Positions 13,237 through 61,967 of a stretch of 64,000 nucleotides of DNA are shown one piece after another (positions within the stretch are counted from its first letter, which is position 1; every line of letters starts with the position of its first letter). Both the position numbers and the translations under genes were made by a program. Source of the DNA: a virus; IMG/VR virus record IMGVR_UViG_3300032116_000025; one strand, written 5' to 3'. The notes under the pieces are model-generated. The model did not search any database, was not told where the DNA came from, and worked only from the letters and a program-made list of their open reading frames with translations.

Positions 13237-13244
13237 CTGATAGG
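13237..13244 (-). promoter_or_regulatory. CCTATCAG element (upstream of sigma gene)
   Basis: Exact motif 15 nt before GTG. Confidence 0.7.
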
Positions 13245-13634
13245 CTAGAGCCCGGTGTTCATTGGACCAACGCCAGACAGCCCTTGGGGTTGGGTAGCCG
13301 GTGTGTTCTTGCGTAAGGCGTTCTTTGGAGAAATATCGGGGTTGATTACCCCATCTACAGGCTTTACCGACTTTACGCCCGGAGCCTGAAGCGTCGGCTT
13401 GCCCACGCGAGGAGCAGGCATGGTGCCGGGAACGCCTTTTTGAGACACAAACTTGCCCACGCTTTGAGAGGGGCTTGCTGGCATCTTAAGAGACATCGCG
13501 ATCTTCGCAAAGAAGGGGGCTAGGATGTCCTCCGCAATCTTGTGCTTCCTTTTCTTGTGACGCGCGTTGACCCGCTTTCCGCTCTCGTAAAGGTACTTGA
13601 CAGTCGTTGGCGTCATGATCCTTTCAACGCCCAT
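13245..13634 (-). CDS. Basic, Pro-rich hypothetical protein with KIA motifs
   Basis: HKIAE, FFAKIAM. Confidence 0.6.
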   Translation of the reverse strand: MGVERIMTPTTVKYLYESGKRVNARHKKRKHKIAEDILAPFFAKIAMSLKMPASPSQSVGKFVSQKGVPGTMPAPRVGKPTLQAPGVKSVKPVDGVINPDISPKNALRKNTPATQPQGLSGVGPMNTGL

Positions 13635-14115
13635 TTGAGTGCTCCTGAACGTAGCGTTTTACTGTTTTTTGATCTTCGCCGCGATCAATCATTTCGCGAA
13701 TTGCCTGGATAGCAGATCCGCTAAGTGCTCCACGGGTAACGTTCTTCCCTAGGTCTCCGCCGGTAAGCTGCTTTGTGACTCCCTGCATCGCGCCAGCACG
13801 ACCGCCTTGGATTAAGCCCTTAACCCCCTCGCCTGCGGCAGCCACAAGAGGGTAGGCAACCGTCATTACCCCGGTGGTTTTTGCGTAACGACCAAGCGTT
13901 TTCTTCTTGGATAGCCGCTTAGCTGCGTCCAGAGCTTCATCGTCGCTGATCTCCTCAGCAGCAAGCTTTAGCTCTTCAAAAAACGCAGACCAAGCCGGTC
14001 CTAAGCTGGCTTTCTTTGCGTGACTCATGTGTCGCCTTCCCGCGCCGTGCATACGGTCGATAAGCGTCTGGGCAGAAATGCTTGGGCTTCCGGACCGCGG
14101 TACAAACGTCGGCAT
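13624..14115 (-). CDS. Hypothetical protein with AFFEELKLAA motif
   Basis: 163 aa; KKAS and KLAA motifs, Gly-rich C-terminal helices. Confidence 0.65.
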   Translation of the reverse strand: MPTFVPRSGSPSISAQTLIDRMHGAGRRHMSHAKKASLGPAWSAFFEELKLAAEEISDDEALDAAKRLSKKKTLGRYAKTTGVMTVAYPLVAAAGEGVKGLIQGGRAGAMQGVTKQLTGGDLGKNVTRGALSGSAIQAIREMIDRGEDQKTVKRYVQEHSNGR

Positions 14116-14137
14116 GGTTTCCGATTGTACGACAGAC

Positions 14138-17100
14138 TCAGCCTAGAACGCCACAGGTAGCAAACATGGTGTAAAGGTACCGAAGCACCGCCACCCGTTT
14201 TTCCTTTCTGGTGTCTAGGCGAGCTGAAATAGCCTGGTCCCGCCTAGCCCGTGTTGCCTCAGCCCCCGTAGTCTCATCTGGATCCCGAATAGTTAGCCCA
14301 AGGATCGTTTGCGGGCGAGTGCCGTCGCCCGGCCCGATGATTCTTCGCAGATCATCAAAGTCTCCAAACGCTCGCGAGTGGAACCCCTCCACTCCTTGAG
14401 TCACAGAACCATCATCTGCAATCTGAAGGTTGGCCGTGCCAAACAGATCCACCATTGAGGCGATTGGGCGCCAAGTATACGCCTTGATAAACTGGTGAAC
14501 GTCAAACTGGTTTAGCTTGACGAGGCTGTAGATTCGCACCAGCTCTTCAGTAGCTTCGCTGATGACACTCCGCTCTTGAGATCCCAAAATAGCGGATCTT
14601 ACGACGCGGTCCTCTGTGGTTGGCGGAGTTCCGGCTGGCCCAAGGATCTCTCCCTCTGCCACAGCAGGTTCTGACGTACCTGGTTGGGGACCAGACGCTG
14701 CCGGGTCGTTAAACTCTCCACGCGCCAACGAGCTGATTAGCGTAGAGAACTCCTCGTTCATGGTTACACGAAGGGTTCTATCTACTCCATCGGCTGGCGT
14801 TGCCGCTCCTGGGTCTGCCCGAGAAGAGTCAGCGCTTCCGGCTACTACGCGAAGTGGGTCTGTGATAGCGCCTACGCTAAAGAAGTAAGCGTACAGGCCG
14901 CCTACCTGCTCAGACCGCCACTGATCCCCGTACCACGGCGGGAAGGTAAGAACCTCGGGGGGCAGGTTAACCGACTCACGCCGGTACGCCCCTAGGTTTT
15001 CTACAATCCGGTACGCGCGGAAAGTAACGAGGGTTTCTGTAGTTACAGATCCACCGCTTCCCGCTGACGCTGACGCATCCCACGGTGCACGGTTTACCGT
15101 AGAAGAATTGTAGAGCCCCCCGGCGCCTACGTAGGCTACGACCTCCGGGCCGTAGTTAGCCGCAGGCTGCTCTATTCCAACACGAACGCGCGTGCCACGG
15201 CGAGCCCGTCCTCGGAATGCAACGTCGTCAATGTAGAGCGGAACAGTGCGGTCAGAAGCTCTGCGGCTTGCTGGAGGCAGCGCCGTGCTGCCAGCCAAAA
15301 CAGTTGTTCCGGTAGCACCGGTGGTCCCTGCGGCACCGGTGCCGGGGGTACTGCTAGGCCCACTAGTCTCCGTTCGGCGCGCGGTTCTTGCCCGAGCTAC
15401 CCTCCGCAGGAACTCAGAGGTGATATCTCTAACCTCTACAATCGTTCCACCCCGAAACCCGACCCCCCCAACCTGCGGCGGGCGTAAGGCCCCAACTTCT
15501 GTGACTACCCGAACGTTGCGGTTTCTTCGGCCTGTTGTTCCTACGTTATCGCCAAGAAACTCCGTGCGCTCACTTGTTGTCCGGGCGTACGACATCTGAA
15601 TCTGCGTCGTGCCCCCAGACTGAGTGTCCAGACTATGGGAGATAAGCTCTGGCGTTCCTAGGTAATGCGTATTGGGCCGAGCTTCCAATACGTCAGAAAG
15701 CACCTCGTAGATTCGGGCGCTTTCCGCGGCCAGCCTTGCGTCTAGCTCAGCTTGCGGAACGCCTGACCGAATGATGCCCTCACCGTCTGCAATCGCTTCT
15801 GCAAGACGCGCGGCTACCGCTGAAGAGTAGGTACTCTCGCGAAGAGAGTCGGTGGGCAAGTACCGGTCAATAACCAGCATGGGAAAGCCCAGCACGCAGT
15901 ACGGGTTGAACTTTCCCGCAAGCTGTAGCTGTCGGCTTTGGAACCGCTGCTGGAAAAAGATGAAGTTGCAGGCTAGCTGGGCATAGCCAAGCCGAACGTT
16001 CTCGACATCGTAGTAACCCCCTCGCAGTGCGTGAAGGTTTAGGTCGCTCATGCGCTCAAACGCTGGAATGATCCCTGTGTAAAGTTCGTGATCCATGAGA
16101 TCACGGCGAATATGCAGGGGATAGTCGGCGTTTGTAAGCTCCGGGTCCCGCGCAGTAACCGGCGGACGCGTACCAGACCGCGCCCCCGACAACCTTGACG
16201 GAGCCATGTAAAAGCCGTCAAACAGAATATCGCTGCCAAAGAACGCAGAGTGCGTCCGAAGCAAGAGGCGAGAAGTCTCCTGCATGTAGTTACGGCTGTA
16301 GCTAAAGTTGCTGTACAGCTCGGGGAAGATGACGTTGCACCGGGGAGGTGCAACCATCCAAGCATTGGGGCGGTAGATCTGAGTAAGTAGCCTAGGCGGA
16401 GGATCAGGCTGCTGGGTAGTGCGCTGGATCCTGCGGCGAACGCTTGCGCGCAAGACGTCTTCCATAAGCCCAATGATCTCGTCAAGGATACGAGATACGT
16501 CGCTGGAGGTTGGGCTTGTGTTGACGGGGAGAACCCGGCGGTCTCCCGGGACGCGAAGCATTGAGCCAATGCCCCCGGTGCGCCCTCCCCACCGCTCTGA
16601 CGCAGTCTCAAAGTTCGCAGCGACTGTCGGTATCCCCCAGAAGTCTGTCAGAGGACTTCCCGCCCGCCCTCGGCCGACCGCGCGAGCTAGGCGCGACGCA
16701 CGAACACACACCCTGTTCTGGTTTAGCAACTCTGCGCGGAGTCCACCTCGGAGGTTGCTCTCACGCAAAGCATCATCCGCGGTGTTACAGCGAGCTAGGC
16801 GCTCTTTTAGGTCTAGCGCCCTGCTCTTTACCCGATCCGCGATCCTAGCAAGCGGGGCGGTTTCCTCGTCTTGGTCAATGGTGTGCGTTTCGTAGCGAGG
16901 AATGTTGGGATCGTAAAGCGGCGGAATATACCGGGGCGAGGTGATCGGAATAATCTCGTGAAAGATGTAGCGCTGAAGCGCTAGCAGGATTTGCCTGATG
17001 GATACAAGGCGGCCAAGCCCGGCTAGATTCCGACGAAATAGCGAGCCAAAGCCGTTGGCCCGCATGAGGCGCTGCTCATCCCGGTTTGTGTAAGGGCTTG

Positions 17101-19096: not shown

Positions 19097-19104
19097 CCTA
19101 TCAG
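19097..19104 (+). promoter_or_regulatory. CCTATCAG element
   Basis: 9 nt before ATG 19114. Confidence 0.7.
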
Positions 19105-19113: not shown

Positions 19114-19692
19114 ATGACTACCATGACTAACTCAGAAAAGCCCGCAAGGCATAACTGCCCCTGGACCGAGGAAGAAGACCACCTACTTCACTTTTACTGG
19201 GGAGCTAGAGCCGTACCGTGGATCGCAAACAAGCTCAAACGGTCGGCCTGGTCTGTCACGCGTCGCGCCTTAGAGTTAGATCTTGGGCCGTTTGAGCGCG
19301 GAACTCTTAGCATGAAGCAGTTTTGCGAAAGAAGCGGGTTCCTACAGCATCAAGTGCTGCGCGTAGCTAGAAGCCTGAACATGATCATTCGCAGAGCGCA
19401 GCCCGGAAGCCCCCTAGCGCCAAGGCCAAAGCGGAGATACGCGATCGACGATGATCAGCAAGAGGCGCTTCTTGAGGGGCTTCTCAAAGTTACAGAAAAA
19501 TCATCCCACGTATACAGGGACAAACCCGGCGACGCACGATCCACAAAAGGAAAGTGGGGCGTAGGCAAGAAGCCACCAGCGTGTCTCCGATGCGCCACGA
19601 ACGAGCGTCCCCACTGTAGCTTAGGCTTGTGCTCCAGCTGCTATAACCGGCGGTACAAGAGTCCTAAACCGTCAAGTTCGTCCGGATCATAA
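19114..19692 (+). CDS. Myb/SANT-like HTH protein with C-terminal Cys/His cluster
   Basis: WTEEED.LL....IA..LKRS..SV..RA..L; CLRC..HC..GLCSSCY; start chosen after CCTATCAG. Confidence 0.65.
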   Translation: MTTMTNSEKPARHNCPWTEEEDHLLHFYWGARAVPWIANKLKRSAWSVTRRALELDLGPFERGTLSMKQFCERSGFLQHQVLRVARSLNMIIRRAQPGSPLAPRPKRRYAIDDDQQEALLEGLLKVTEKSSHVYRDKPGDARSTKGKWGVGKKPPACLRCATNERPHCSLGLCSSCYNRRYKSPKPSSSSGS

Positions 19693-23753: not shown

Positions 23754-23761
23754 CCTATTAG
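23754..23761 (+). promoter_or_regulatory. CCTATTAG variant element
   Basis: 16 nt before ATG 23778. Confidence 0.6.
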
Positions 23762-23777
23762 ACATTGAAGGAGTTTT

Positions 23778-24065
23778 ATGTCCGACACCCAGAACGCCGA
23801 AGAGAAGCCCACCCAGCAGCACCCCACGTTTGTGCCCGTTGCCCTGTTTGACTCGGGAGAGACCCGGTTACTTATGGGAACGTACGACTCAGAGGGAGGC
23901 ACTCAGGCATGCTTCCAGATCATGACACTTCGCCGACCAGACGTTCCTGAAAGTTCTTACACCGTGGCTGAGCTTGCCGCGTTACGAGAGCTAATCAACA
24001 TCGCGCTCCGAGAGGCGGTAGCAATGACCTCCCAGGTGTTTCGCCAAGAGACCAAGGAAGGTTGA
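23778..24065 (+). CDS. Hypothetical protein
   Basis: AAGGAG RBS, CCTATTAG upstream, terminator downstream. Confidence 0.7.
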   Translation: MSDTQNAEEKPTQQHPTFVPVALFDSGETRLLMGTYDSEGGTQACFQIMTLRRPDVPESSYTVAELAALRELINIALREAVAMTSQVFRQETKEG

Positions 24066-24073
24066 GTAAAACG

Positions 24074-24106
24074 GAAAAGGGCCCCCGTGGGGGGCCCTTT
24101 TCTTTT
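24074..24106. terminator. Bidirectional intrinsic terminator
   Basis: GAAAAGGGCCCCC-GTG-GGGGGCCCTTTTC hairpin between convergent genes. Confidence 0.85.
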
Positions 24107-24110
24107 GCCT

Positions 24111-24389
24111 TCAATCTTGTTCGACCTGGATTTCGGTCTGCTCTCTGAGCGCCGACTGGTGCTTGGGTCGCTTGCCTACGTTTTCTACGTAACGCACAAC
24201 GATAGATCGGCAGACTTCGCAGAGGTCTTCAAACTCAACAAGAGTCTCCCCGTCGAGGCGAATCTCAAGCGCGGAAGCCGGTTTCTTTCCCGACTTTGCC
24301 TGCGCAACCGCCTCATCAAGGGTAATCGGCTTCTGCTCTACGCGGGGACATCGGGCGCACTGCTTGTTTAAGCTTAGAGAGAAGCCCAT
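24111..24389 (-). CDS. Zinc-ribbon-like hypothetical protein
   Basis: CARC and CEVC. Confidence 0.65.
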   Translation of the reverse strand: MGFSLSLNKQCARCPRVEQKPITLDEAVAQAKSGKKPASALEIRLDGETLVEFEDLCEVCRSIVVRYVENVGKRPKHQSALREQTEIQVEQD

Positions 24390-24390
24390 A

Positions 24391-24606
24391 TCACTCTCCC
24401 CGCGCCGTCGCGCAGTAAAGGATGTACGCCTTTACGACGCCCCTCTCTGCTCCAATAAGAGGCCCGGCTTCCAGCCCTTTAGCCCGCTGCCGGTCGATAA
24501 ACCAACGCTCAAACTGGACAAGCTCGCCATCGAGCATCTCATCTAGCTTGCGTACGTCTAACTCCGACGGGGGCGGGCTGATCTTGATTTCTACCGATAG
24601 CTGCAT
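24391..24606 (-). CDS. Hypothetical protein
   Basis: ORF track; packed in operon. Confidence 0.6.
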   Translation of the reverse strand: MQLSVEIKISPPPSELDVRKLDEMLDGELVQFERWFIDRQRAKGLEAGPLIGAERGVVKAYILYCATARGE

Positions 24607-24919
24607 CTTCGTCCTTCCTGTTGGTTTTCTTGCGGATCTTCCCGCCCTCTAGCGCTTCTTCAGCCTCAAGAGACAGGTTCTCCCAGTTTTCTAGCTCGTC
24701 TCGGGCTTCGCTAATCTTGACTTCGATTTCGTTGATCGTGCTCTCTACGTGCACCTCTGGAACCGTTGCGTAGTCAGACCGCGTAAACCGCATCTCAGCG
24801 TCGCCTGAATCAGACGACAAGTAGTTTGTCCGAAGATACAGGATAAGACCTTCTAGCACGGAGATCCTTGAGCGGATCTCCGAGATCTTATCGATTACGG
24901 TTCCAGCCTTTACGCCCAT
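24539..24919 (-). CDS. Hypothetical coiled-coil protein
   Basis: ORF track. Confidence 0.6.
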   Translation of the reverse strand: MGVKAGTVIDKISEIRSRISVLEGLILYLRTNYLSSDSGDAEMRFTRSDYATVPEVHVESTINEIEVKISEARDELENWENLSLEAEEALEGGKIRKKTNRKDEDAAIGRNQDQPAPVGVRRTQAR

Positions 24920-24921
24920 GG

Positions 24922-25617
24922 CTACGCCAGAAGGAATGCCCGGAGACGCCCTTCAAGCGTTGCACCGGAAGAGGTGTCTTTGAGGATGTTTGCGAGGGGG
25001 TAGGCGATCCGCATACGGCGGTTCCTGACCTTGTCGTATACCTCACCGCCCCGATCACGCTCCATCTCTTTTTCGTTAGCGCGCCGAATATCACCCTCAA
25101 CGTGCTCTAGGACAATGTCCGCGTTGCAGTCTAGGCGGGTAAACATCTTGTAGACGAGCGTCACCCAGTGCTGAAGCGGGAGCCTTGCCATGACCTGCCC
25201 AACGAGGTCGGTTGGGTTGTGTACCGACTTGCACTTCGGGCACACGGCAACCCGCTTAGAGACAAACTGAATGTGAAGCGGCTCACCACACGTAACGGTT
25301 GACCCGTCCTTGCCGTCTTCCTTGCTGGGGCAAAGGTAAACAACCTCGTCGCCCCCGCCGTGCAAGAACCCTCCGTTAGTCCACACGCTGACCATTCCGA
25401 AGAATGGTCGGTGAAGAGAGCGATCTTGCGAGAAGCAAACTTCCAGCTTGAACCGGGCCTGCGCCTCGTCCAGATCTGTCAAAAACATCTTTGACAGCTT
25501 CTCTTCAACCTCCTCGTCAAGAACGGCATCGCGGGCAAGCTCCGCCATGTCGTAAAGGCCCCCGGACAGCGCACTGCTGCCGTCGGCGCTTACCATGCCC
25601 TGAGCGCCACGAGTCAC
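24922..25617 (-). CDS. Zinc-ribbon-containing hypothetical protein
   Basis: YLCP..TCG..VCPKCK. Confidence 0.65.
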   Translation of the reverse strand: MTRGAQGMVSADGSSALSGGLYDMAELARDAVLDEEVEEKLSKMFLTDLDEAQARFKLEVCFSQDRSLHRPFFGMVSVWTNGGFLHGGGDEVVYLCPSKEDGKDGSTVTCGEPLHIQFVSKRVAVCPKCKSVHNPTDLVGQVMARLPLQHWVTLVYKMFTRLDCNADIVLEHVEGDIRRANEKEMERDRGGEVYDKVRNRRMRIAYPLANILKDTSSGATLEGRLRAFLLA

Positions 25618-26045
25618 GTGCCCACCTTAAAGTGCTGTGCAACCAAGCCGGAGGCCGCGCCGATTGAGTGTGCGCCCTTGGTGCTTCCGGGCGCTGTATC
25701 TACCCTGCCAACGAGCGGTTGGCTGGTGACCTCAACGCCTTGACTAAGCACCCGGATTACCGTTTGGCCAAGTACTTCTGCTGCGTCCTTAGGCGCGCCC
25801 TTCATAACGACTCGCCAGAGGTACCGGACGCTCTTGGATGTCGTGTCTAGGAAGTAAACGCGGCTAATGTCTACAGACCACTTCTTGTCTGCAAGCGAGT
25901 CCTGCGTAATCAAATATTCCCGAACGACCTCGGCCCAAACCGCCGGGTCCTTTACTCGGAGCATGAGGGTTGCTGATCCCGCAGAGTCTTGCTTCTGGGT
26001 GACGATCTCAGTGCTGCAACGGCCAAGCGCTTGATCTAAACGCAT
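25614..26045 (-). CDS. Hypothetical protein
   Basis: ORF track. Confidence 0.6.
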   Translation of the reverse strand: MRLDQALGRCSTEIVTQKQDSAGSATLMLRVKDPAVWAEVVREYLITQDSLADKKWSVDISRVYFLDTTSKSVRYLWRVVMKGAPKDAAEVLGQTVIRVLSQGVEVTSQPLVGRVDTAPGSTKGAHSIGAASGLVAQHFKVGT

Positions 26046-26046
26046 C

Positions 26047-26592
26047 TCAAGCTCCCATGTCGATGATGATTGCGTGTGTCACGTCGGCTAAGAGGTTGGT
26101 TGGCCCGCCCATAACGACGAGTTTGTCCTCAAACGCCGGGGTATCGGAGTAAATAGCGGGCATCCCAAAAACGCTTTGGGGCCTTGGATCCTCAAGCGCC
26201 AAGAACGCGCTAAGATCCTCGGCTTTTTGCGCTGCCAGAAACGTGGGCTTTACGCGGTACGCCGAGAGTGTTCGAGTTGCTAGCTCTAACGATAGGTACG
26301 GGTGCCGTTCAGGGTCAAAAGGCAGCGATGACAGGTTCCCAGACGCCTCTACCCGCTCCAGCACAAAGGCTGCGTCTACGTGTTGAGCAACCTCAACGCT
26401 TGGAATGACCTGTTCGCCGTCGGCTACGAGCCTTTGGACGTTAAACTCAGTCGGAGTGATGCGGATCTCAAGGGTGTCCGGCAGCTCCACCACGCGCTTA
26501 AACAGCGCCACGATCTCCTCGACCGTGCGAGGAAGGGGCTGGCTGTGCGTACGCAGCCTACGGCCTTCATCCTGGGTTGCTGCTGATTCCAT
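26047..26592 (-). CDS. Hypothetical protein
   Basis: ORF track. Confidence 0.6.
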   Translation of the reverse strand: MESAATQDEGRRLRTHSQPLPRTVEEIVALFKRVVELPDTLEIRITPTEFNVQRLVADGEQVIPSVEVAQHVDAAFVLERVEASGNLSSLPFDPERHPYLSLELATRTLSAYRVKPTFLAAQKAEDLSAFLALEDPRPQSVFGMPAIYSDTPAFEDKLVVMGGPTNLLADVTHAIIIDMGA

Positions 26593-26773
26593 CGAGGATC
26601 CTTTCGCTCTTCGCTTCGAGCTTTTCTCGATACAGGCGCACGGCGTCGTTCACCACTCCGGCTATTCCAGCCTCGTGGTGTTGAGCTGCTGCGCGCAGAA
26701 ACTCCAACGTGTCCTGGCTAAACCGGACCGTCGTAGGAGCTGCTTTTTTTGAACCGTCTCTCCGACGAGACAT
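26567..26773 (-). CDS. Ribbon-helix-helix-like regulator
   Basis: PTTVRFSQDTLEFLRAAA....IAGVVNDAVRLY pattern; ATG 6 nt after TATTCT. Confidence 0.6.
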   Translation of the reverse strand: MSRRRDGSKKAAPTTVRFSQDTLEFLRAAAQHHEAGIAGVVNDAVRLYREKLEAKSERILDGISSNPG

Positions 26774-26779
26774 CGCTTG

Positions 26780-26821
26780 AGAATACTTAGCGAATACCAA
26801 TCGTCAAGAGAATACTTACTC
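26780..26821 (-). promoter_or_regulatory. Sigma70-type promoter TTGACG-16-TATTCT with GAATAC direct repeats (putative operator)
   Basis: -35 at 26802-26807, -10 at 26780-26785; GAATAC at 26781, 26792, 26810. Confidence 0.6.
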
Positions 26822-26827
26822 GACGGC

Positions 26828-27100
26828 TCAGAAAGTGTTGCTTGTCTCCGTAATCGACGAGAGAGCCAAGAGCGCTTGCTCAAGACCAACCAATCCGGGG
26901 AACCGAACTTGGATGCGGCGGCAGGCCACCCGGCTCAATGCGCTAAGATCTTCAGCGCTGGTGGTCAGCCCGTTAATAAGGGCTACGTCGCGCAGCTCAA
27001 CCTCTAGCTCAGCGCGAAGCCTTTGGTTGGCCCCTAACCAATACGGGAGCCAACTCCAGCGAAGCTCAACAGCCCCCTCAATAAGCTCGACTAGCTTCAT
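26828..27100 (-). CDS. Hypothetical protein
   Basis: ATGA overlap with upstream gene. Confidence 0.6.
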   Translation of the reverse strand: MKLVELIEGAVELRWSWLPYWLGANQRLRAELEVELRDVALINGLTTSAEDLSALSRVACRRIQVRFPGLVGLEQALLALSSITETSNTF

Positions 27101-28779
27101 GAGGAGCGGACGGTGGCCTGTAAGAAGTGAACGGTTGCGTCAAGCTGGTCATCCGGGTGAGACCAATCCCGCTCCAGCGAGATCCACACCGGAGCATTGG
27201 TAGCCAAGCCGGGTAGTACCAGCGGAAGCTCGTACACTGTGTTGGCCGAAACCATGTTGACTGTGCCGCTAACACTTAGCGGCAGCGGGCCGCCCGGAGA
27301 TCCGGTAGCCAAACCGTAGTTCACCTTAAACCGAGCCGTCTTGCCTACCGACCCGTTTGAGTCTGAAGTCAGGTAAAGCCGTAGCTTTGGCGCAGAAACG
27401 GGTGCCGCCGTGTGGAACCTAGCGCGGATGAACCGCCCATCGGCAGCAATAAACGACCGAAGGTACGCCGTAAACGACAGAGAACCGCTAACGTGCCCGA
27501 ACCGGACACGAAGCTCGTTGGCTGCTGACAACCCAGCTGACCCAAAAACTCCAGGATCGAAGGTTACAAAGTCTAAAATCGACAGGCTTTGATAAACAAC
27601 CTCTTTACCGCCAGTTTCCACGGCGCCGCCAACTGAGGCCCATACAGACGGCACAGGGAACGGAATAAACGAACTCTCAGCTAGTCCTGAAAGCTCTGTG
27701 TAGTAAACCGTGTTGTCCCTGAAGTTCAGCCTTACGCCTTGGTATGGGGAAGCTACCGCCGCGTAAACGGCTTGAGCTTCAAATCCAGAACCCACCGCAC
27801 CCGAGGGAATGTCCTCAGACAGCACCGTGGTGTACGCGTAAACTTTTGTTGGGGCAGCCGCTGTCGTAACGGCCTTTTCGTAGAAGTTGATGTCCGGCGC
27901 AGTAGCTTGCAGAGCTAGCGCGCCGCCCGGCGTTAATGACCAAGCAGCAGGTGACCCGGCGCCAAACCTGGTCCAGCCCTGCGCATCTGGAAACACCCCG
28001 TCTCGAGCGTCGTAGTCAATCACTACGTTGCACTTGTCAAACGGGATCGATACCTGTCCCGGGCCTGCCGGCTGTCCGGAGTAGGTAGAGAGGCGGCTGC
28101 CCGTAAGCCACTGGCGTGGGGCCCCTCCGATGTCTGCGTCGTTGGGAGAAAGGATCATGGCCGGAGCCTCCAGCGTGATTACAGCAACGGCGCTCTCACA
28201 ACCGCAGCAGCGATCTACGACAGTTACCGTGTAAGAGCCAGTGTCGGGTACTTCGGGCAAGGGCGCCCGCAGCATTGTGTCTACCGTTGGCGCTCCCGAT
28301 GGAGGAGCTACGGCTACAACAGGCGGCGGAGCAGCAAATACAGAAAGAGGAGTCCCAGGAACGTAAGATAGCGGTATCTCATAAGTTCCTCCGGGCCCGT
28401 CCACTTTAAGTGAGTAGCAGGTGATCGGGATCAGCGCGTCTGACGCTACTACGTAAAAGTAGCCGTCAGAAACAAATCCACCAAACACTGCGATGCCGCC
28501 GAGACGCTTTTGCGTTCTTACGCGCGAGCAGCTCTCACAAGCCACTTCTAGCTGTGAAGCCCGAAACGTACCGGAGAACAATCCCCACTGGGTCCCGGGG
28601 GCTCCGCCACCGAAGTACGTACCAAACGGCGTGGCACCAAATCCGCCCGGAGGGTAGATTGGATCAAACTGCATCCAACGTTCTACCGTGGACGTAACCG
28701 CCAGGCGCTTTTCACGAAAGCGGTTGAACCCGCACGTACAGCGCTGGTTTGGTACTAAAGCCACGTACGTCTCACGCAA
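27097..28779 (-). CDS. Putative virion-associated protein with Cys clusters
   Basis: 560 aa; CTC, CESC, CCGC; GFGATPFG motif; beta-rich. Confidence 0.55.
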   Translation of the reverse strand: MRETYVALVPNQRCTCGFNRFREKRLAVTSTVERWMQFDPIYPPGGFGATPFGTYFGGGAPGTQWGLFSGTFRASQLEVACESCSRVRTQKRLGGIAVFGGFVSDGYFYVVASDALIPITCYSLKVDGPGGTYEIPLSYVPGTPLSVFAAPPPVVAVAPPSGAPTVDTMLRAPLPEVPDTGSYTVTVVDRCCGCESAVAVITLEAPAMILSPNDADIGGAPRQWLTGSRLSTYSGQPAGPGQVSIPFDKCNVVIDYDARDGVFPDAQGWTRFGAGSPAAWSLTPGGALALQATAPDINFYEKAVTTAAAPTKVYAYTTVLSEDIPSGAVGSGFEAQAVYAAVASPYQGVRLNFRDNTVYYTELSGLAESSFIPFPVPSVWASVGGAVETGGKEVVYQSLSILDFVTFDPGVFGSAGLSAANELRVRFGHVSGSLSFTAYLRSFIAADGRFIRARFHTAAPVSAPKLRLYLTSDSNGSVGKTARFKVNYGLATGSPGGPLPLSVSGTVNMVSANTVYELPLVLPGLATNAPVWISLERDWSHPDDQLDATVHFLQATVRSS

Positions 28780-28945
28780 TCTTGGGCGGCACTAACAGGC
28801 GCTCTAACACGTAGTCTGTCGTTGGCGGAGGAGCAAACGATTCCCTAAGCCTCGCCTGCGTCACTGAGACGGTCTTTACCACCTTCTCAAACTGCTTCAG
28901 AGACTCTCGCATCTGATGCACTTCTTCAGGGTCGTGCTTTTTCAT
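28772..28945 (-). CDS. 57-aa hypothetical protein (not in ORF track)
   Basis: Hand-translated MKKHDPEEVHQMRESLKQFEK...; AGGAG RBS, ATGA overlap; fills the gap. Confidence 0.55.
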   Translation of the reverse strand: MKKHDPEEVHQMRESLKQFEKVVKTVSVTQARLRESFAPPPTTDYVLERLLVPPKIA

Positions 28946-29277
28946 CGCCGCACTCCTTTGGGGTGGGTGTCGCGTACGGCGTCCTCCAGAATCTCAATGC
29001 GCTTTTCAACTCGATCGAGGGTCTGAAGAGTGCGCTCGTAGACGTTCTTTACCTCGGTAGACGTACGCACCTGCTCGCGCAACGCACCGTTAAACTCGGT
29101 GGTTACTGCAAGCAGAGTGTCGCGCACCTCGCGAGCGTCTTGCACGCGAGCCGACTGAACTTCGCCAAGCCTTTGCGAAAGAGACTTGGCGTAAAGAGCC
29201 AGCGGGATTGTTACCAGGACAAAGAAGGCTCCGAAGATGCCGCCTTGGGTAATTAGCGTACTCGTTGCAGCATCCAC
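28942..29277 (-). CDS. Holin-like membrane protein
   Basis: One N-terminal TM helix (GGIFGAFFVLVTIPLALY) plus coiled coil. Confidence 0.5.
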   Translation of the reverse strand: MDAATSTLITQGGIFGAFFVLVTIPLALYAKSLSQRLGEVQSARVQDAREVRDTLLAVTTEFNGALREQVRTSTEVKNVYERTLQTLDRVEKRIEILEDAVRDTHPKGVRR

Positions 29278-29315
29278 GGGGTTTCCTTACTAGTAGTCTA
29301 ACTACCGCTGCTAGT

Positions 29316-30305
29316 TCAGAACGTGCCGGTAACTGTCCAGCCAAAAAGACGGGCAACGAGCTGAATGCCCGTGTTGGCCGGTACGGTTACAGCAGGAACA
29401 ACGCCGCCGACGGGGCTGATGATAGAGCTTACCGTTGGCCCAATCGGACTAGCGAGCGAAATTGAGTTTGCCCCGTCTACGTTGATCAACGTAAGCTGCG
29501 TGCCGCGCGGGTAGTCAGCGGAGCTGGGAAGCGTTACGATAACGCCCGCACCACCGGGGACTAGCTCAATAAACGTCGGGTAAGACGTGTCGAGCGTAAG
29601 GTCTACCGCGGCGCCACCGGCGTTGACCAAGGATGCAGAGCACCGAGCTACTGCCCCGATGTTTACGGAGCCCGACGTGACGCGAACCTGCGGGTTATAG
29701 TGGCTGCCCGCGCCAGGGTCACCGATGATCTCTACACGTGAGGTGCCGCCATCCGCTAGAACCACGCGGGGCGTCTGGACATACTCGCCGTTTACTAAGC
29801 TGGTCCCAGAAGCCCCGTTAACCACAATACCAGCGTTGCCACCGTTATGGTCAACGGTGACACCGTCTCCCGCTCCAGCCGCAGAGATATAAGCCCCGTC
29901 TCCTGATCCTGACGCGCTGATAGAAACGCCTGGACCAGACGACGAAGCAAGCAGGCCAACAGCAATGCCCGGGCCGTTCGCGGACCCAAGCATCGCAATC
30001 TCAATGCCGGGCGCCCCGAGAGTAGATACGTTTGAAATCTCTAAGGGGGTAACCTTGTTGCCCGCAACTGTGTTTTGCAGAGTAATAGCTCCGCTAACCG
30101 GAACTACGTCAACAATCCGACCTGAGTCGTAAACGTCTTGGAGCGTGGGAACACTGCCACCGCCGCCAACAGGCCCAACGGTGTTTCCCGCAGCATCAAT
30201 GACGTAAAGCTGGTCGTCGCTCTGATCAAAGTAGAGCGCGCCCTCCCCAGCGGGAACGGTAGGAGCGGTGCCGGCACCAAGACGAATGTTTGCAGCAGTA
30301 GTCAT
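29316..30305 (-). CDS. Putative tail fibre/spike-like protein
   Basis: GALYFD..D.QLY N-terminal module, TLQDVYD, G.G.GV.I beta-helix-like repeats, LP.S..YP.G C-terminal domain. Confidence 0.6.
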   Translation of the reverse strand: MTTAANIRLGAGTAPTVPAGEGALYFDQSDDQLYVIDAAGNTVGPVGGGGSVPTLQDVYDSGRIVDVVPVSGAITLQNTVAGNKVTPLEISNVSTLGAPGIEIAMLGSANGPGIAVGLLASSSGPGVSISASGSGDGAYISAAGAGDGVTVDHNGGNAGIVVNGASGTSLVNGEYVQTPRVVLADGGTSRVEIIGDPGAGSHYNPQVRVTSGSVNIGAVARCSASLVNAGGAAVDLTLDTSYPTFIELVPGGAGVIVTLPSSADYPRGTQLTLINVDGANSISLASPIGPTVSSIISPVGGVVPAVTVPANTGIQLVARLFGWTVTGTF

Positions 30306-30396
30306 CTCTCACTCCTCACTGTGGAACTTGGGTGGGTCACCACTTGTAAATATAATTGCGCCTGACGGGTTTGAAGGGCCAGCCATGTTGATCTCC

Positions 30397-30693
30397 TCAG
30401 GGAATGACCATGAGCTGCGCGCCCGGAGATAGCGTAAACGACGCACCAGGATCTACAATTAGGCCCGGCGCTTTAACAATGTACTGGTAATCCGCAGGAA
30501 TGACGTACGCGTCACCAGTGCGAAGATTAAACTTCGTACCCAGCTGCGTTGCTCCGCCAACCCCCAGCGGACCCGTCTCGGTACCGGCGTCGTCCTTGGT
30601 GTAAAGGAAGCCGTCTGTTTTTGCGTAAACAGCGACTTGGCCCGGATCAGGGGTCGAGGCCGCAGGTCCCGTCGTTAGCTTAAGCTGCGCCAT
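30397..30693 (-). CDS. Putative fibre adaptor protein
   Basis: N-module like 29316..30305, C-module like 30703..31362. Confidence 0.6.
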   Translation of the reverse strand: MAQLKLTTGPAASTPDPGQVAVYAKTDGFLYTKDDAGTETGPLGVGGATQLGTKFNLRTGDAYVIPADYQYIVKAPGLIVDPGASFTLSPGAQLMVIP

Positions 30694-30702
30694 GTGGTCC
30701 TC

Positions 30703-31362: not shown

Positions 31363-31399
31363 GACGCAAGGATAGCATTACCCCGCGCGGCAGAGAATC

Positions 31400-37210: not shown

Positions 37211-37248
37211 GAATACGATAAGAATACTTACTCAGTTGAGGGTGTCAA
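37211..37248 (-). promoter_or_regulatory. Sigma70-type promoter TTGACA-16-TATTCT with GAATAC repeats
   Basis: -35 at 37243-37248, -10 at 37221-37226; GAATAC at 37211 and 37222. Confidence 0.65.
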
Positions 37249-37301: not shown

Positions 37302-37309
37302 CCTATCAG
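37302..37309 (+). promoter_or_regulatory. CCTATCAG element
   Basis: 16 nt before methyltransferase ATG. Confidence 0.7.
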
Positions 37310-39147: not shown

Positions 39148-39155
39148 CTGATAGG
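39148..39155 (-). promoter_or_regulatory. CCTATCAG element
   Basis: Just upstream of 38650..39144. Confidence 0.7.
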
Positions 39156-41754: not shown

Positions 41755-41762
41755 CTGATAGG
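41755..41762 (-). promoter_or_regulatory. CCTATCAG element
   Basis: After a terminator, 17 nt before ATG 41737. Confidence 0.7.
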
Positions 41763-44116: not shown

Positions 44117-44124
44117 CTGATAGG
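44117..44124 (-). promoter_or_regulatory. CCTATCAG element
   Basis: 6 nt before ligase ATG. Confidence 0.7.
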
Positions 44125-44944: not shown

Positions 44945-45349
44945 TTAGATCTTGACCCGGCTCAGGTCAAGGTTTTGTGTAAGCCCCGGGGGCTCACCAA
45001 CGGTCGAGCGGGGCGTGGAACGCGCCTCGTCCACCGCCTCTCGGGCCATCCGCCTCGTCTGGTCGAACGACTCCTCGTCGTCATGCGGACGACGAAGAAT
45101 CGGAATGAACTGGATGTCCTCAAGGGACATCCTTTCGACCGGAATCGCCGGGCAGATTGCCCAGCCATCCGTGTAAGAGTACCGGAGCACCCCCCGGATA
45201 CTCTCACAGATCGCCGTCGCGCAGCGAACTTCAAGGTCCCCTTCCTTGTTCCTGTAGGACCTGAGGTTCCCCGTCACGACGGAGATCATCTTGAAGTTGT
45301 TGTCCTTCTTGTTGCCGTTATTGTGCACTGTTCCTCCTGCAAGGGACAA
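44945..45349 (-). CDS. Hypothetical protein
   Basis: AGGAGG RBS before internal GTG; CCTATAAG upstream. Confidence 0.6.
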   Translation of the reverse strand: MSLAGGTVHNNGNKKDNNFKMISVVTGNLRSYRNKEGDLEVRCATAICESIRGVLRYSYTDGWAICPAIPVERMSLEDIQFIPILRRPHDDEESFDQTRRMAREAVDEARSTPRSTVGEPPGLTQNLDLSRVKI

Positions 45350-45365: not shown

Positions 45366-45373
45366 CTTATAGG
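45366..45373 (-). promoter_or_regulatory. CCTATAAG variant element
   Basis: Intergenic, upstream of 44945..45349. Confidence 0.55.
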
Positions 45374-46653: not shown

Positions 46654-46832
46654 GACAGGCGCTTTGGGTCACCCATCAACGCCCTTTCCAAGAGCGTTTG
46701 CCACCCAGGGTCTAGGTCATAGACGGGCACAACGGTCACTTCGTCATCTTCGTTAGCAAACCGAAAGCAGATAATTCCGGCGGGACCGACGTCAACAGAA
46801 AGCCCCGGACCCAAAACCATAGTTTCAATCAC
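46650..46832 (-). CDS. Hypothetical protein
   Basis: Coupled both ends. Confidence 0.5.
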   Translation of the reverse strand: MIETMVLGPGLSVDVGPAGIICFRFANEDDEVTVVPVYDLDPGWQTLLERALMGDPKRLS

Positions 46833-47218
46833 GAGAGTGCCTCCAGAATTTGCCGCAGTAGATCTTCGCGCTCGTCGTCATCATCTAAGCACTTGGACGA
46901 GTTGCGTAGGAGGATCTCGGCAATCTTGTCCCGGCTAGGGCGTAACCCGGGGTCCAGCAGGGATACGTCTTGATCGGTAACAAGCATACTTGCGTCCGCA
47001 GGGGTGTCGTAGTTGCCGTCTTCCTCATCCAGAACAATGATTTGTCCGCTTTCGCTAAGCAGCCCGGCGGAGTCCTCTAGTTTCCACCCGTTCAACCCAC
47101 AAGCCTGCGCGTAAATAGCGGCCTGTTTGGATTCCAAAAGGCTTCGACTTTCAGCGGTAACGCTGATCGTTAGGTGTTCGCGTAGGTGATGGATTACTTC
47201 TACTCGGTACGTCGGCAT
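46829..47218 (-). CDS. Hypothetical protein
   Basis: GGAGG RBS, CCTATCAG upstream. Confidence 0.65.
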   Translation of the reverse strand: MPTYRVEVIHHLREHLTISVTAESRSLLESKQAAIYAQACGLNGWKLEDSAGLLSESGQIIVLDEEDGNYDTPADASMLVTDQDVSLLDPGLRPSRDKIAEILLRNSSKCLDDDDEREDLLRQILEALS

Positions 47219-47231: not shown

Positions 47232-47239
47232 CTGATAGG
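47232..47239 (-). promoter_or_regulatory. CCTATCAG element
   Basis: After a terminator, 13 nt before ATG 47218. Confidence 0.7.
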
Positions 47240-47250: not shown

Positions 47251-47287
47251 AAAGGTATGAGGGCGGGCCCCGGCCCGCCCTCATACC
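47251..47287 (-). terminator. Intrinsic terminator overlapping stop codon
   Basis: GGTATGAGGGCGGGCC-CC-GGCCCGCCCTCATACC hairpin. Confidence 0.7.
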
Positions 47288-47727
47288 CACCTAATCGTCC
47301 CATCCCTGTGTACGGTTATGATCGGTATACCCTGGCAGACCGCTTGACGGATCACTCCGAGATCCGCTGACTCGGGCGGGTACCGCCGCTTGCCGTCAGC
47401 ATCTTCTACGGGGAAGGCCACGACGAGAGAAACCCCAACGGCTAGGTATGGGTCTCTTTCGTACGTGGCGGTCAGTCGTTTGTCCTTGTCGGGTCCTACT
47501 AAAGTTGCTGGCGCGCCGAGTTGCTCGGCTACCTCTTCAACTACTTGGTCGAAGGGGAACTTACCAGCGTGTACCACTTGGTAAGGCCGAACCAAGAACA
47601 GGTCAGCCATCACGTCCCGAACTAGATCTCTGTCTACGTACCACGTCCGGCACGCAGGACCTACTACGAGCAGTACGGGGTCTTCAGCCTGTAGAAGCGC
47701 GTAAACAGCGCGTCGATAGTCGTCCAT
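47281..47727 (-). CDS. Divergent SLOG-like protein
   Basis: LLVVG..VVHAG..D..A..VVAFP..I.QA..GIP Rossmannoid pattern. Confidence 0.5.
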   Translation of the reverse strand: MDDYRRAVYALLQAEDPVLLVVGPACRTWYVDRDLVRDVMADLFLVRPYQVVHAGKFPFDQVVEEVAEQLGAPATLVGPDKDKRLTATYERDPYLAVGVSLVVAFPVEDADGKRRYPPESADLGVIRQAVCQGIPIITVHRDGTIRWV

Positions 47728-47733
47728 CTGTGT

Positions 47734-47741
47734 CTGATAGG
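47734..47741 (-). promoter_or_regulatory. CCTATCAG element
   Basis: 6 nt before ATG 47727. Confidence 0.7.
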
Positions 47742-48733: not shown

Positions 48734-49064
48734 AGTCCTGCTCCATTTTATGCACGCTAACTAGAAGCCGGTGGCTTCTGGCCGCGTTCACGAGAATCTT
48801 AGTGCTAACACAGGTTCCATCGCAAATCGCGATGAGCCCGTCCGCGTGACGAATCATGCCTTGGTATTTAGCGCCGACCTCATCGTCGGAGAACCGGTGT
48901 AGCCGCAGTTTGCGGCTACGTGCATACCGCTCTACCGCCCCGTCAACGCCATGTACACCTCCGGTGATCACTTCGGTGACATCGTACTGAGAGGCAGCTA
49001 CCGCGTTTTCTACAACCGTCAGTGTGGGCTCAAACGAAAGGCTGCCAGCAATGATCACGCGCAC
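48699..49064 (-). CDS. SLOG family (YspA/DUF2493-like) protein
   Basis: MRVIIAGS, VITGG..GVD...ERYA, M...AD.LIA..DG...T. Confidence 0.7.
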   Translation of the reverse strand: MRVIIAGSLSFEPTLTVVENAVAASQYDVTEVITGGVHGVDGAVERYARSRKLRLHRFSDDEVGAKYQGMIRHADGLIAICDGTCVSTKILVNAARSHRLLVSVHKMEQDYGKPTCTQIRV

Positions 49065-49423
49065 GTCTTTCGCTCCGACAGAAGCTGTTGCACATACTGA
49101 GGCGTGTAGCTCAGTCCTACTGCTTCATCTGGGAAGAGCAGAAACGGGTGGGATTGGGATCCACCGGAAAACAACATCCACACGTTCCCAGTCTTTGAAT
49201 CCACCAAGACGTGGATCTCTGAAAAGTCTAGCGGCTTACAGGAAAAGTCTTTGAGCACGTGCCAAAAGCTGATCCTTTCGTTCTCTCGGTGAAATCCGAG
49301 CCAGCCCATCCCGCCGTCAGGGCTGTACACCTCTGCACCCCTCAACCAACTGTGCGGCGCAGGAAGGTTCTCGTATCCTCCCAGTGGGATCGCCTTCTCT
49401 TGTAACTTGTGCATGTAGGGCAT
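49055..49423 (-). CDS. Hypothetical protein
   Basis: GGAG RBS. Confidence 0.55.
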   Translation of the reverse strand: MPYMHKLQEKAIPLGGYENLPAPHSWLRGAEVYSPDGGMGWLGFHRENERISFWHVLKDFSCKPLDFSEIHVLVDSKTGNVWMLFSGGSQSHPFLLFPDEAVGLSYTPQYVQQLLSERKTCA

Positions 49424-49503
49424 TTATCTCCGCAAAAGAACAAGCGTCGTGTGCCTACTGGTTTGGTAGTAGGAGGACTTGGCACACGACGCTCGTTCAA
49501 ACT

Positions 49504-49511
49504 CTGATAGG
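49504..49511 (-). promoter_or_regulatory. CCTATCAG element
   Basis: Intergenic after thyX. Confidence 0.65.
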
Positions 49512-51839: not shown

Positions 51840-52415
51840 TCACTTTGACTCTACAAGGATCTCGTAGAGCACTTCCGCGTCTAGTTCTCCTAGCTCTGAG
51901 CGGGGCACCTCACGTCCCTCATGTGTAAGCACGCCCGTCGAGGTTTGCTTCGCCAAGAACTCATACTTGTCCGCAGACGACAGGTTGGGTTGTGGCTTCT
52001 GGTACCCCGCGGTCTCTACGGCCACCATGAAGTCTGACTCCGACTTCGACAGTCGGTGAACCACATCTGCAACCTTCATCACAGGTCGAATGTCAGACCT
52101 TGTCTGAGCACGGAAACGCGTAGGGGTGGGGGCCACTTCTTCTTGCTTCCAAGAGGTCACTAGATCTGTCAGGGCATAGTAAGCGTTCAGTGGGCTGATG
52201 CTTTGAACGCTCACGTCTCCAACGTGGCCGTCGCGCTCCTGCACAAGCGAAACCCGCGTCTGGCCGGAGTTCTTTCCGGTACCCCGAAGAACCACGAGAA
52301 ACACCTCGCCGGGAAAGACCCCAACGTCGAACCTTCGCTCGGGACGCCAACCCTCCGGTTGGGCGGGGGGTGCTGCTGTACGAGGCTTAACTACCGGAAT
52401 GTTTTTGATGTCCAT
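51840..52415 (-). CDS. Hypothetical protein
   Basis: AAGGAG RBS, CCTATCAG upstream. Confidence 0.65.
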   Translation of the reverse strand: MDIKNIPVVKPRTAAPPAQPEGWRPERRFDVGVFPGEVFLVVLRGTGKNSGQTRVSLVQERDGHVGDVSVQSISPLNAYYALTDLVTSWKQEEVAPTPTRFRAQTRSDIRPVMKVADVVHRLSKSESDFMVAVETAGYQKPQPNLSSADKYEFLAKQTSTGVLTHEGREVPRSELGELDAEVLYEILVESK

Positions 52416-52451: not shown

Positions 52452-52459
52452 CTGATAGG
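52452..52459 (-). promoter_or_regulatory. CCTATCAG element
   Basis: 36 nt before ATG 52415. Confidence 0.7.
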
Positions 52460-61129: not shown

Positions 61130-61561
61130 TCACTTAGCTCCGTCTACGCGGAGTTCACTCCACCATGGCAGGGACTTCTCAAACCTCCTGGCCATCGCTT
61201 CGATCTTCTCCCGCGTAACTCCGTGGGTGTTTCTTGCTGCCGCCACCTCAACAGAAACGTCCACGCGGACAAATGACACTCGATAGCCGCGAGCTTCGGC
61301 AACCGCGACGTAGGGCGATGCCTCCCACAGAGACACGTTCGTGTTGTCCACAACCACGGTCGGCGTACGGTTCATTGTGGCGACCAAGAACTGCCTCATG
61401 CAGTGCTGGTGCGCTTCGTTAATCCGTGAGGCGTCGTACTTGTAAACCCCGTTGTTCACGAACAGGTTGTCCGCCGAACATACGGTGGCGTCGGGGTAGT
61501 TCTTCTTAGCGTAAGTGGACTTTCCGCTGCCCGGAAGCCCTCTCATGATTACGCAGATCAA
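61130..61561 (-). CDS. P-loop kinase (AAA_33 / N4BP2-like)
   Basis: MRGLPGSGKST, SAD, VVDNTN, RNTHGV. Confidence 0.85.
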   Translation of the reverse strand: MICVIMRGLPGSGKSTYAKKNYPDATVCSADNLFVNNGVYKYDASRINEAHQHCMRQFLVATMNRTPTVVVDNTNVSLWEASPYVAVAEARGYRVSFVRVDVSVEVAAARNTHGVTREKIEAMARRFEKSLPWWSELRVDGAK

Positions 61562-61563
61562 GG

Positions 61564-61923
61564 TTACTCTCCCTTCACAACAGCGTATCCGCGCTCACAC
61601 GCCTTAAAGTATGACCCCAGCCGAAGCGGCTTAGCCGACTTGGTAACGTAGTAGTGCTCGGACATGCAGTCCAAACAGTAGATCGGACCACGCAAAAGCT
61701 TTGTCCCATCGTCGTCCTTGTCAGACACCGGAACTGGCGAATCTGTGATGGTGCGGGAGATCCACTCCCAGCCCTCGTTTGAGTTATTCCAGCTTTCGGT
61801 AGCGTCCACCTGCCCGACCTTCAAGCCTCCGATCTTGATTGACCCGCCTCGGTCAGCAAGAGGGATGAGCTTCACGATTGGGGTTACTCCGTACAGGGTT
61901 CCGCCACAGTTCAGACACTTCAT
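61564..61923 (-). CDS. Zinc-ribbon hypothetical protein
   Basis: MKCLNCG, CLDC; GGAGG RBS. Confidence 0.65.
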   Translation of the reverse strand: MKCLNCGGTLYGVTPIVKLIPLADRGGSIKIGGLKVGQVDATESWNNSNEGWEWISRTITDSPVPVSDKDDDGTKLLRGPIYCLDCMSEHYYVTKSAKPLRLGSYFKACERGYAVVKGE

Positions 61924-61959
61924 AAATACCTCCAAATCCTTATACGACGATCTTTGGCG

Positions 61960-61967
61960 CCTATCAG
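61960..61967 (+). promoter_or_regulatory. CCTATCAG element
   Basis: 14 nt before ATG 61982. Confidence 0.7.

Follow-up and report, generated by a model that had tools for sequence, protein, structure and literature searches.

The 64,000-nucleotide (nt) stretch of virus record IMGVR_UViG_3300032116_000025 analysed here (the window; bases 53491-117490 of one 160,725-bp phage record with 57% GC, called G000 below) carries the eight-letter word CCTATCAG in front of a series of its genes, one of which, at 12403-13221, encodes a sigma factor. This arrangement raises the question of what the word does and which enzyme reads it. We find that CCTATCAG is a promoter element that heads non-structural genes and the sigma gene. 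We consider it likely that the element defines an extended -10 promoter class that is read by the phage sigma, most likely together with the phage's own beta-beta' enzyme, and that drives the non-structural genes as well as the sigma gene itself.

An earlier note on this DNA had claimed 11 exact copies of the word and three variants, CCTATTAG at 23754(+), CCTATAAG at 45366(-) and CGTATAAG at 61939(-). A pattern search returned the same 11 coordinates and strands, and all three variants are present. The variants were also recovered, 3/3, by a weight matrix that had only two other genomes as its training set, and the hits of this matrix inside coding regions are few and low-scoring, with a broken core. 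In dinucleotide-preserving shuffles of the window (n=100) the word occurred 1.13 times on average and 5 times at most, none reaching 11. The whole genome holds 16 copies. Compared with all 1680 8-mers of the same composition (mean 4.4, maximum 20) the raw count is unremarkable, and one-mismatch variants as a set show no enrichment (35 found, 36.5 expected). The signal lies in the position and the orientation of the word.

Positions were assessed with a gene model that combines codon usage with a Shine-Dalgarno-based choice of starts; it was used in place of an earlier start-proximity criterion, which accepted any open reading frame (ORF) of at least 50 amino acids and was too loose (controls 18-23%). 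With this model, 15 of the 16 genome copies are wholly intergenic, compared with an intergenic genome fraction of 7.1%, and for 12 of the 16 a co-oriented called start follows within 60 nt (null 3.7% per site, binomial P = 1e-14). The copies had been described as intergenic and pointing into the next gene, with many intragenic or misoriented copies named as the finding that would speak against a promoter. All 11 exact copies in the window are indeed intergenic and point into the next gene. CCTATAAG is placed likewise, with 7/10 copies start-proximal in this genome. When an unbiased scan ranked every 8-mer found within 60 nt before called starts, CCTATCAG came first and CCTATAAG fourth in G000. 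No copy of CCTATCAG is found in 1-13236 or 23762-37301 of the window. The sigma gene and the sites in the window are the following.

12403..13221, minus strand: gene of the phage sigma factor, 272 amino acids; the product has regions 2-4 and is a divergent sigma-70-family protein, nearest FliA/WhiG
13237..13244, minus strand: CCTATCAG before the sigma gene, in a 23-nt gap directly after the stop of the upstream gene
19097..19104, plus strand: CCTATCAG before the lone plus-strand gene 19114-19692, ATG 9 nt after the motif
23754..23761, plus strand: variant CCTATTAG before the lone plus-strand gene 23778-24065, weight-matrix score 15.5 with training on other genomes
37302..37309, plus strand: CCTATCAG before the lone plus-strand methyltransferase-like gene 37326-37889, with GCAAAACG at -35 to -28
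39148..39155, minus strand: CCTATCAG before gene 38650-39123
41755..41762, minus strand: CCTATCAG before the 411-amino-acid gene 40502-41737, directly after the terminator hairpin 41763-41815
44117..44124, minus strand: CCTATCAG before the DNA ligase gene 42998-44110, ATG 6 nt after the motif (leaderless geometry)
45366..45373, minus strand: variant CCTATAAG before gene 44945-45328
47232..47239, minus strand: CCTATCAG before gene 46829-47218, directly after the 16-bp terminator hairpin 47253-47288
47734..47741, minus strand: CCTATCAG before gene 47281-47727, ATG 6 nt after the motif (leaderless geometry)
49504..49511, minus strand: CCTATCAG with an 80-nt leader, gene 49055-49423
52452..52459, minus strand: CCTATCAG before gene 51840-52415, in a 36-nt gap containing AAGGAG
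61939..61946, minus strand: variant CGTATAAG before gene 61564-61923, 13 nt from the 61960 copy, with which it lies back to back
61960..61967, plus strand: CCTATCAG before the lone plus-strand gene 61982-62743

Relatives of the phage were found through its DNA ligase gene. G001 (177 kb, sigma 47% identical) and G002 (192 kb, sigma 34% identical) contain 17 and 14 copies of CCTAT[C/A]AG, respectively, and in all three genomes the word CCTATCAG is the top start-proximal 8-mer of the unbiased scan, which makes no prior assumption. A near-identity DNA search of a phage collection with the motif-rich region gave no match, and viral-contig searches with the sigma of the window alone and with P0023 found no relative. 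The promoters are conserved at orthologous genes: 5/7 motif-headed G000 genes have a motif-headed orthologue in G001, compared with 0/93 of the other orthologue pairs, and the flanks have diverged. In the weight-matrix version of this test the figure is 4/7 (Fisher P = 9e-6), with the ligase copy, an exact CCTATAAG, falling under the score threshold. In front of the ligase orthologues stand CCTATAAG in G001 and GCTATCAG in G002; CCTATAAG also precedes the G001 orthologue of gene 61982-62743, and CGTATCAG that of gene 61564-61923; the G001 orthologue of the 411-amino-acid gene is likewise motif-headed, and a divergent copy equivalent to the 19097 site is present in G001 at 161933. The base at -9 (numbering as below) therefore swaps between the G000 and G001 orthologues, from C to A at the ligase and 61982 genes and from CGTATAAG to CGTATCAG at the 61564 gene. 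This swap at orthologous promoters indicates that CCTATCAG and CCTATAAG belong to one class and rules out that they mark two timing classes. Run on two distant cultured relatives, the same unbiased scan gave GGTATAAG as the top word in Salmonella phage Arash (22/31 copies start-proximal, P = 4e-24) and GTTATAAG in Vibrio phage D69 (15/19, P = 3e-17).

To describe the element, we pooled 57 CCTAT[C/A]AG sites from G000 and the two relatives and numbered TAT(C/A)AG as -12 to -7. T-A-T at -12/-11/-10 is invariant (57/57), as is CC at -14/-13, and G stands at -7 in 57/57 of these sites, in 31/31 in Arash and in 19/19 in D69, in the place of the T of housekeeping sigma-70 promoters. Upstream, 58% of the sites have C at -16 and 49% have G at -15; farther off come an AT-rich patch at -20 to -18 and an A-rich patch at -32 to -29, with A at -30/-29 in 42-47% of the sites. 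Downstream, A stands at -5, T occupies -2 in 58% of the sites and G occupies -1 in 74%; position +1 is a purine in 53/57 sites (93%), never T, and A-G-G comes after it. The proposal that the word is a -10 box fits this profile, since placing TATMAG at -12 to -7 gives the conserved T-G-purine at -2/-1/+1 and the A-rich patch at -32 to -29. The accompanying statement that there is no fixed -35 stands insofar as this lineage has no strict hexamer, but it overlooked that A occurs at -32/-31 in 60% of the pooled sites. In Arash and D69 a -35-like box at -35 to -29 is clearer than here (TC.A.AA and TTAA.TA, respectively).

The profile at -2 to +4 indicates that in this lineage the predicted start coincides with, or adjoins, the beginning of the GGAGG ribosome site. 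If a promoter has no ribosome site behind it, ATG takes this position, which gives a leaderless geometry; the spacing of exactly 6 nt between motif and ATG that had been reported at 44117 and 47734 is exact when measured. At the sigma gene, GGAGG follows 5 nt downstream of the motif and the GTG start 15 nt after it. On the mechanism that we propose, CCTATCAG and CCTATAAG would act as an extended -10 element, with CC at -14/-13, TAT(C/A)AG at -12 to -7 and a weak A-rich box at -32 to -29. Transcription would start 6-7 nt beyond the word, at a conserved G or purine, so that many mRNAs would begin right at GGAGG, and those of DNA ligase and gene 47281-47727 would be leaderless.

Several results mark the word as a signal of transcription and not of translation. 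Lone opposite-strand genes need a promoter of their own, and each of them carries the word: all four in the window (starts 19114, 23778, 37326 and 61982) do so, as had been noted, the one at 23778 by way of the T variant. A CGTATAAG copy just outside the window (L002:11038-11045, where L002 is G000:117000-136000) lies 21 nt before a tRNA-Thr/Leu/Pro cluster; since such a cluster has neither a ribosome site nor a start codon, this copy fits a promoter and not a ribosome-site signal. Arash and D69 have long leaders of variable length, yet A-A at -5/-4, a T-G followed by TAA, 6-7 nt after the word, and the -35-like box are fixed relative to the word. This result again suggests transcription, because the leaders vary and the T-G step stays. 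The observation that two copies directly follow terminators is borne out by strong hairpins directly upstream of the copies at 41755 (hairpin 41763-41815, -31.3 kcal/mol, z = -6.6, then a U-run) and 47232 (hairpin 47253-47288, -35.1 kcal/mol, z = -5.2). Finally, no other promoter-like signal was found in CCTATCAG-bearing gaps as short as 23-58 nt, and host sigma-70-type matches are depleted in the motif-rich region (2 vs 7.5 +/- 2.4 expected), as they are below expectation elsewhere in the window.

Which factor would read this promoter? The 272-amino-acid product of 12403-13221 had been called a sigma70-family protein. Neither Pfam (E <= 0.001) nor PHROGs gave a match to the product itself, and its homologues include proteins with Pfam Sigma70_r3 (PF04539). 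Positions 93-263 of the family profile align to regions 2-4 of primary sigma factors (RpoD/SigA; best chain E = 2e-13) and to residues 413-599 of Escherichia coli RpoD (E = 9e-10). The AlphaFold model of the product, with a predicted local distance difference test (pLDDT) score of 80, retrieved only sigma factors in Foldseek, at probability 1.00, the top one being B. subtilis SigD. Profile and structure thus both place the product among proteins with sigma regions 2, 3 and 4, in line with the call. The NCBIfam model FliA_WhiG (TIGR02479) is the best model for 26/26 family members; the product itself scores 20.9 bits against a cut-off of 189.6, so that it is a sigma nearest sigma-28 and not a member of that family. 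We conclude that the protein is a divergent sigma-70-family protein nearest FliA/sigma-28. No other sigma gene was found in the genome, where it is the only sigma-like gene. A T7-type polymerase was considered as a reader as well and set aside, since no PF00940 match was found in the genome, with control genomes uninformative for PF00940. From the sequences, we infer that the word would be read by this single phage sigma.

A closer correspondence between sigma and promoter appeared when E. coli FliA (annotated K-12 record) was aligned with the phage sigmas. The column of FliA R91 (R97 in Pseudomonas aeruginosa), a position known to read the extended -10 bases in sigma-28, holds Lys in G000 (Lys138), G001 and G002, Arg in several homologues, and Glu in Arash, D69, P0029 and P0030. 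For five further genomes, G004-G008, the words were predicted from the sigma alignment before they were checked; the gene caller was poor in G005 (66% GC), and copy counts against a reversed-word control were used. In the Arg-type genomes G005, G006 and G008, CCTATMAG has 16, 17 and 15 copies vs 1 each for the reversed control, and TGKTATAAG has zero. In the Glu-type genomes G004 and G007, CCTATMAG is not enriched (9 vs 12 and 5 vs 8 in the control), and TGKTATAAG has 41 and 10 copies vs 5 and 2; in G004, (T)GGTATAAG heads the ranking of start-proximal words. The ten genomes therefore split without exception, Lys or Arg going with nCC-TATMAG, of which G000-G002 have 14-26 copies, and Glu with TG(G/T)-TATAAG. 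In the Glu-type relatives the copies are nearly one-stranded (38/41 in G004, IMGVR_UViG_3300038393_001391; 30/31 in Arash; 10/10 in G007), and the single plus-strand copy of Arash is the one before gp9 and the sigma gene, gp10.

The copy that had been reported before the sigma gene is present at 13237 and is kept in 6/6 genomes of the CC promoter type. In G000, G001 and G005 the sigma start follows it after about 24 nt; in G002, G006 and G008 the distance is about 325 nt, and the copy stands before an ORF of about 100 amino acids. In these last three (L164, L221 and L220, respectively) the promoter-headed ORF abuts or overlaps the sigma start, and comparison of the two arrangements indicates that the promoter has moved relative to the small ORF. 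In Arash, GGTATAAG stands 305 nt upstream, before gp9 and then sigma; no copy was found within 450 nt upstream of sigma in G004, G007 and D69. A positive loop, in which the sigma promoter would be read by its own product, is plausible and conserved in the lineage.

The earlier note had also assigned the word to non-structural genes, and the annotated genes behind it agree, all being non-structural: those directly behind the word are DNA ligase, the methyltransferase-like protein and small orphans, and thymidylate synthase and dCTP deaminase lie within motif-headed units. As we propose it, the class would drive nucleotide metabolism, the ligase, small early-type genes, tRNAs and the sigma gene itself. 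The phage also encodes a 2067-amino-acid chain with Rpb2_6 (2.5e-57) and Rpb1_2 (3e-20) in Pfam, that is, a fused beta-beta' polymerase, and this is probably the enzyme with which the sigma works. In Arash, beta, beta' and sigma were detected by mass spectrometry in purified particles (PMC10585845). If the enzyme is virion-delivered as in Arash, the CCTATCAG class would constitute a host-independent early programme.

A second kind of promoter bounds this regulon. The pattern TTGAC-N17-19-TAnnnT has 5 matches genome-wide, 4/5 of them intergenic and 6-72 nt before a co-oriented gene; these four head the polymerase gene, a 503-amino-acid gene and, at the two sites in the window, the motif-free block.

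37221..37248, minus strand: host sigma-70-type promoter TTGACA-N16-TATTCT, heading the motif-free block 24111-37208 and bounding the CCTATCAG regulon
26780..26807, minus strand: second host-type site, TTGACG-N16-TATTCT, inside the motif-free block

Both window sites have the same promoter type at the same positions in G001, and in all three of G000, G001 and G002 a TTGACC-N18-TAGACT promoter stands 6 nt ahead of the start of the polymerase gene. The location of the TTGAC sites, on the polymerase gene and the motif-free blocks, indicates that the phage has two promoter classes. The class can be written TTGAC(A/G/C)-N16-18-(G)TA..CT, and its copy at the polymerase gene (genome 7299 region, L001) has a leaderless geometry. 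We also observed that GTATTCT occurs twice, 11 nt apart, at 37210-37248(-) and 26780-26815(-), and that the orthologous pairs in G001 are spaced 9-11 nt. Given virion delivery, this class, TTGAC-N16-18-TAnnCT, on the polymerase gene and the motif-free blocks would be left to the host enzyme, as in late transcription of N4. A more far-reaching version of the scheme, in which an orthogonal, virion-delivered holoenzyme of the fused beta-beta' chain and the FliA-like sigma, with a promoter code set largely by one residue (Lys or Arg for CC, Glu for TG), runs the early, non-structural genes together with its own sigma gene and the host RNA polymerase serves the polymerase and virion genes in an N4-like, inverted order, is one that we put forward only tentatively, as possible but somewhat doubtful.

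Could the word instead be read by a host sigma, either FliA/sigma-28 or sigma-70 on an extended -10, the phage sigma having another role? The sigma-28 promoter of P. aeruginosa fliC consists of (-36)TCTAAAG(-30) and (-15)GCCGATAA(-8), in which GC is the extended -10 read by R97 and the A at -11 is flipped out (PMC12784957). GCCTATAA agrees with GCCGATAA at 7/8 positions in register and has an A-rich -35, and TGnTATAAG in Arash and D69 has 5/6 of the sigma-70 extended -10. However, the pooled form, G(49%)-C-C-T-A-T-(C/A)-A, reaches the 7/8 match in its A variant and always has T where the sigma-28 core has G at -12, and the Arash word is unlike the sigma-28 consensus of its Salmonella host. Sigma-70 requires T at -7, which is replaced here by the invariant G of all three sets of sites. 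Furthermore, the bases at -14/-13 follow the phage sigma residue over ten genomes of 44-66% GC, which a conserved host factor would not predict, and the phage encodes its own sigma and polymerase, with the promoter on the sigma gene itself. A host sigma is therefore an unlikely reader.

Two other explanations take the word out of the hands of a sigma factor altogether. It might be the site of a phage DNA-binding regulator, a repressor or activator acting over ordinary promoters like the stoperators of Cluster A mycobacteriophages; the sites are asymmetric, oriented with transcription and located in short intergenic gaps as stoperators are, and two window genes weakly match a D5-like transcriptional regulator, PHROG 323 (19114-19692(+), E = 8e-4; 39172-39762(-), E = 2.5e-4). 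We regard this as quite improbable, given that in its sequence and its register the word matches a -10 element, T at -12, A at -11 and T at -10 being invariant, that the start step lies at a fixed distance and the -35-like box at sigma-type spacing, that gaps of 23-58 nt hold no other promoter-like signal, and that the change at -14/-13 tracks the residue known to read that position in sigma-28. Alternatively, the word might act in RNA, as a processing site or translation enhancer similar to the start-associated sequences of Cluster K mycobacteriophages. Such a role would account for the fixed distance from the word to GGAGG, the word in G000-G002 usually standing 5-6 nt before GGAGG or ATG, but it is at odds with the copies before the tRNA cluster, directly after terminators and ahead of lone opposite-strand genes, where a promoter is obligatory, and with Arash and D69, in which the distance to the start codon varies widely and that to the TG is fixed. 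We give it hardly any credence. The tRNA-cluster copy, the variable start-codon distance and the -10-type geometry set the element apart from start-associated sequences and stoperators alike.

Reading by the phage sigma with the phage polymerase, which we prefer, has to be held against a number of contrary points. The start site is placed by geometry, and the R-A-G-G conservation at +1 to +4 belongs in part to the ribosome site; this lineage has a weak -35 signal (A at -32/-31 in about 60% of sites). The -10 word is near the host sigma-28 consensus, and a host FliA might read it in this lineage. The sigma protein by itself has no Pfam match, lies far below the cut-off of the FliA_WhiG family and aligns to FliA at 15-25% identity, while the match of residue and word is distributed over two clades and is thus effectively one evolutionary split. 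Virion packaging is shown for Arash only, whose sigma is 31% identical. In addition, orphans make up most of the proteins in the motif-free blocks, which received no annotation from PHROG and Pfam scans, and the label 'structural' derives from synteny.

Set beside known promoters, the element resembles those of sigma-28 more than ordinary sigma-70 promoters. Like the former, it has G-C-C at -15/-14/-13 in the same register, the same bases at -11 (A), -10 (T) and -8 (A), and an A-rich -35, and the extended -10, for which sigma-28 uses a basic residue (R91 in the E. coli protein, R97 in that of P. aeruginosa), goes here with an aligned Lys or Arg. It differs in the added invariant G at -7, in the C tolerated at -9 and in a much weaker -35; unlike in sigma-28 systems, the sigma falls under the family cut-off and its partner core is probably the fused beta-beta' of the phage. 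With the extended -10 sigma-70 promoters (TGnTATAAT) it shares 5/6 bases in TATAAG and the presence of two specific upstream bases, which in Arash and D69 are even T-G at -15/-14, but it has G for the near-invariant T at -7 and, in this lineage, CC and not TG.

Phage sigmas with private promoters are known already, namely T4 gp55 for late genes (TATAAATA, no -35), SPO1 gp28 and gp34, and phiEco32 gp36. The system described here resembles them in combining a phage sigma with a short -10-type word before a gene class. Those sigmas use the host core, whereas this phage also encodes a beta-beta' polymerase; moreover, its sigma has regions 2-4 and is not truncated as gp55 is, and its class would drive non-structural and not late genes. 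Virion-packaged multisubunit polymerases are likewise known, with early promoters in phiKZ and AR9 (PMC7598289, PMC5312081), and the polymerases of jumbo phages are split and highly diverged, without a sigma-70-family subunit (PMC7824862). Similarities to phiKZ and AR9 are the phage's own multisubunit polymerase, virion-borne in Arash, and a private word before early or non-structural genes. The fused bacterial-type beta-beta' chain, the recognisable sigma and the bipartite sigma-type promoter are differences, and the presence of a sigma-70-family subunit places the system outside a class whose polymerases have none. The host-type promoters on other genes recall N4, in which the virion polymerase acts early and the host polymerase late. 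A literature search found no description of this promoter, and promoters are not mentioned in the only paper on Arash (PMC10585845).

Some sites show further features. The 37302 site has the top weight-matrix score of the genome, 27.5, and the divergent gap 61924-61981 (58 nt) holds its two promoter copies back to back. The 80-nt leader of the 49504 promoter forms a 22-bp hairpin from the predicted +1 (49424-49498, -34.7 kcal/mol, z = -6.5), after which UUCUUUUG, a U-run, stands just ahead of the ribosome site of gene 49055-49423; the hairpin might serve as a small RNA, as an attenuator or to stabilise the 5' end. A GC-rich hairpin at 24073-24103, perfect over 14 bp and with T-runs on both strands, resembles a bidirectional terminator between the lone plus-strand gene 23778-24065 and the convergent minus-strand block. 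Just beyond the window, L002 contains a plus-strand cluster of CCTATAAG-type promoters (window-equivalent 65881-77027), several of which share a box like GAGCGGGC.TTCT(C/T)TTGCC about 20 nt before TATAAG; this upstream box is absent from the CCTATCAG sites of the window. The tRNA cluster in L002 comprises eight genes (11067-13166; Thr, Leu, Pro, Ser, Val, Leu, Lys and Gln), the first trio of which lies behind the CGTATAAG copy.

The mRNAs that would start at a ribosome site or a start codon have an unusual geometry, and the correspondence between one sigma residue and two promoter bases amounts to a rule of extended -10 recognition that lends itself to direct tests. A compact pair of sigma and promoter with a non-host base at -7 could serve as an orthogonal expression module. 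The sites also provide a ready map of transcription units for a large group of uncultured 150-190-kb phages. In the literature searched, no bacterial-type holoenzyme made of a fused beta-beta' chain and a sigma-70-family subunit is described with a defined promoter code that extends across a lineage.

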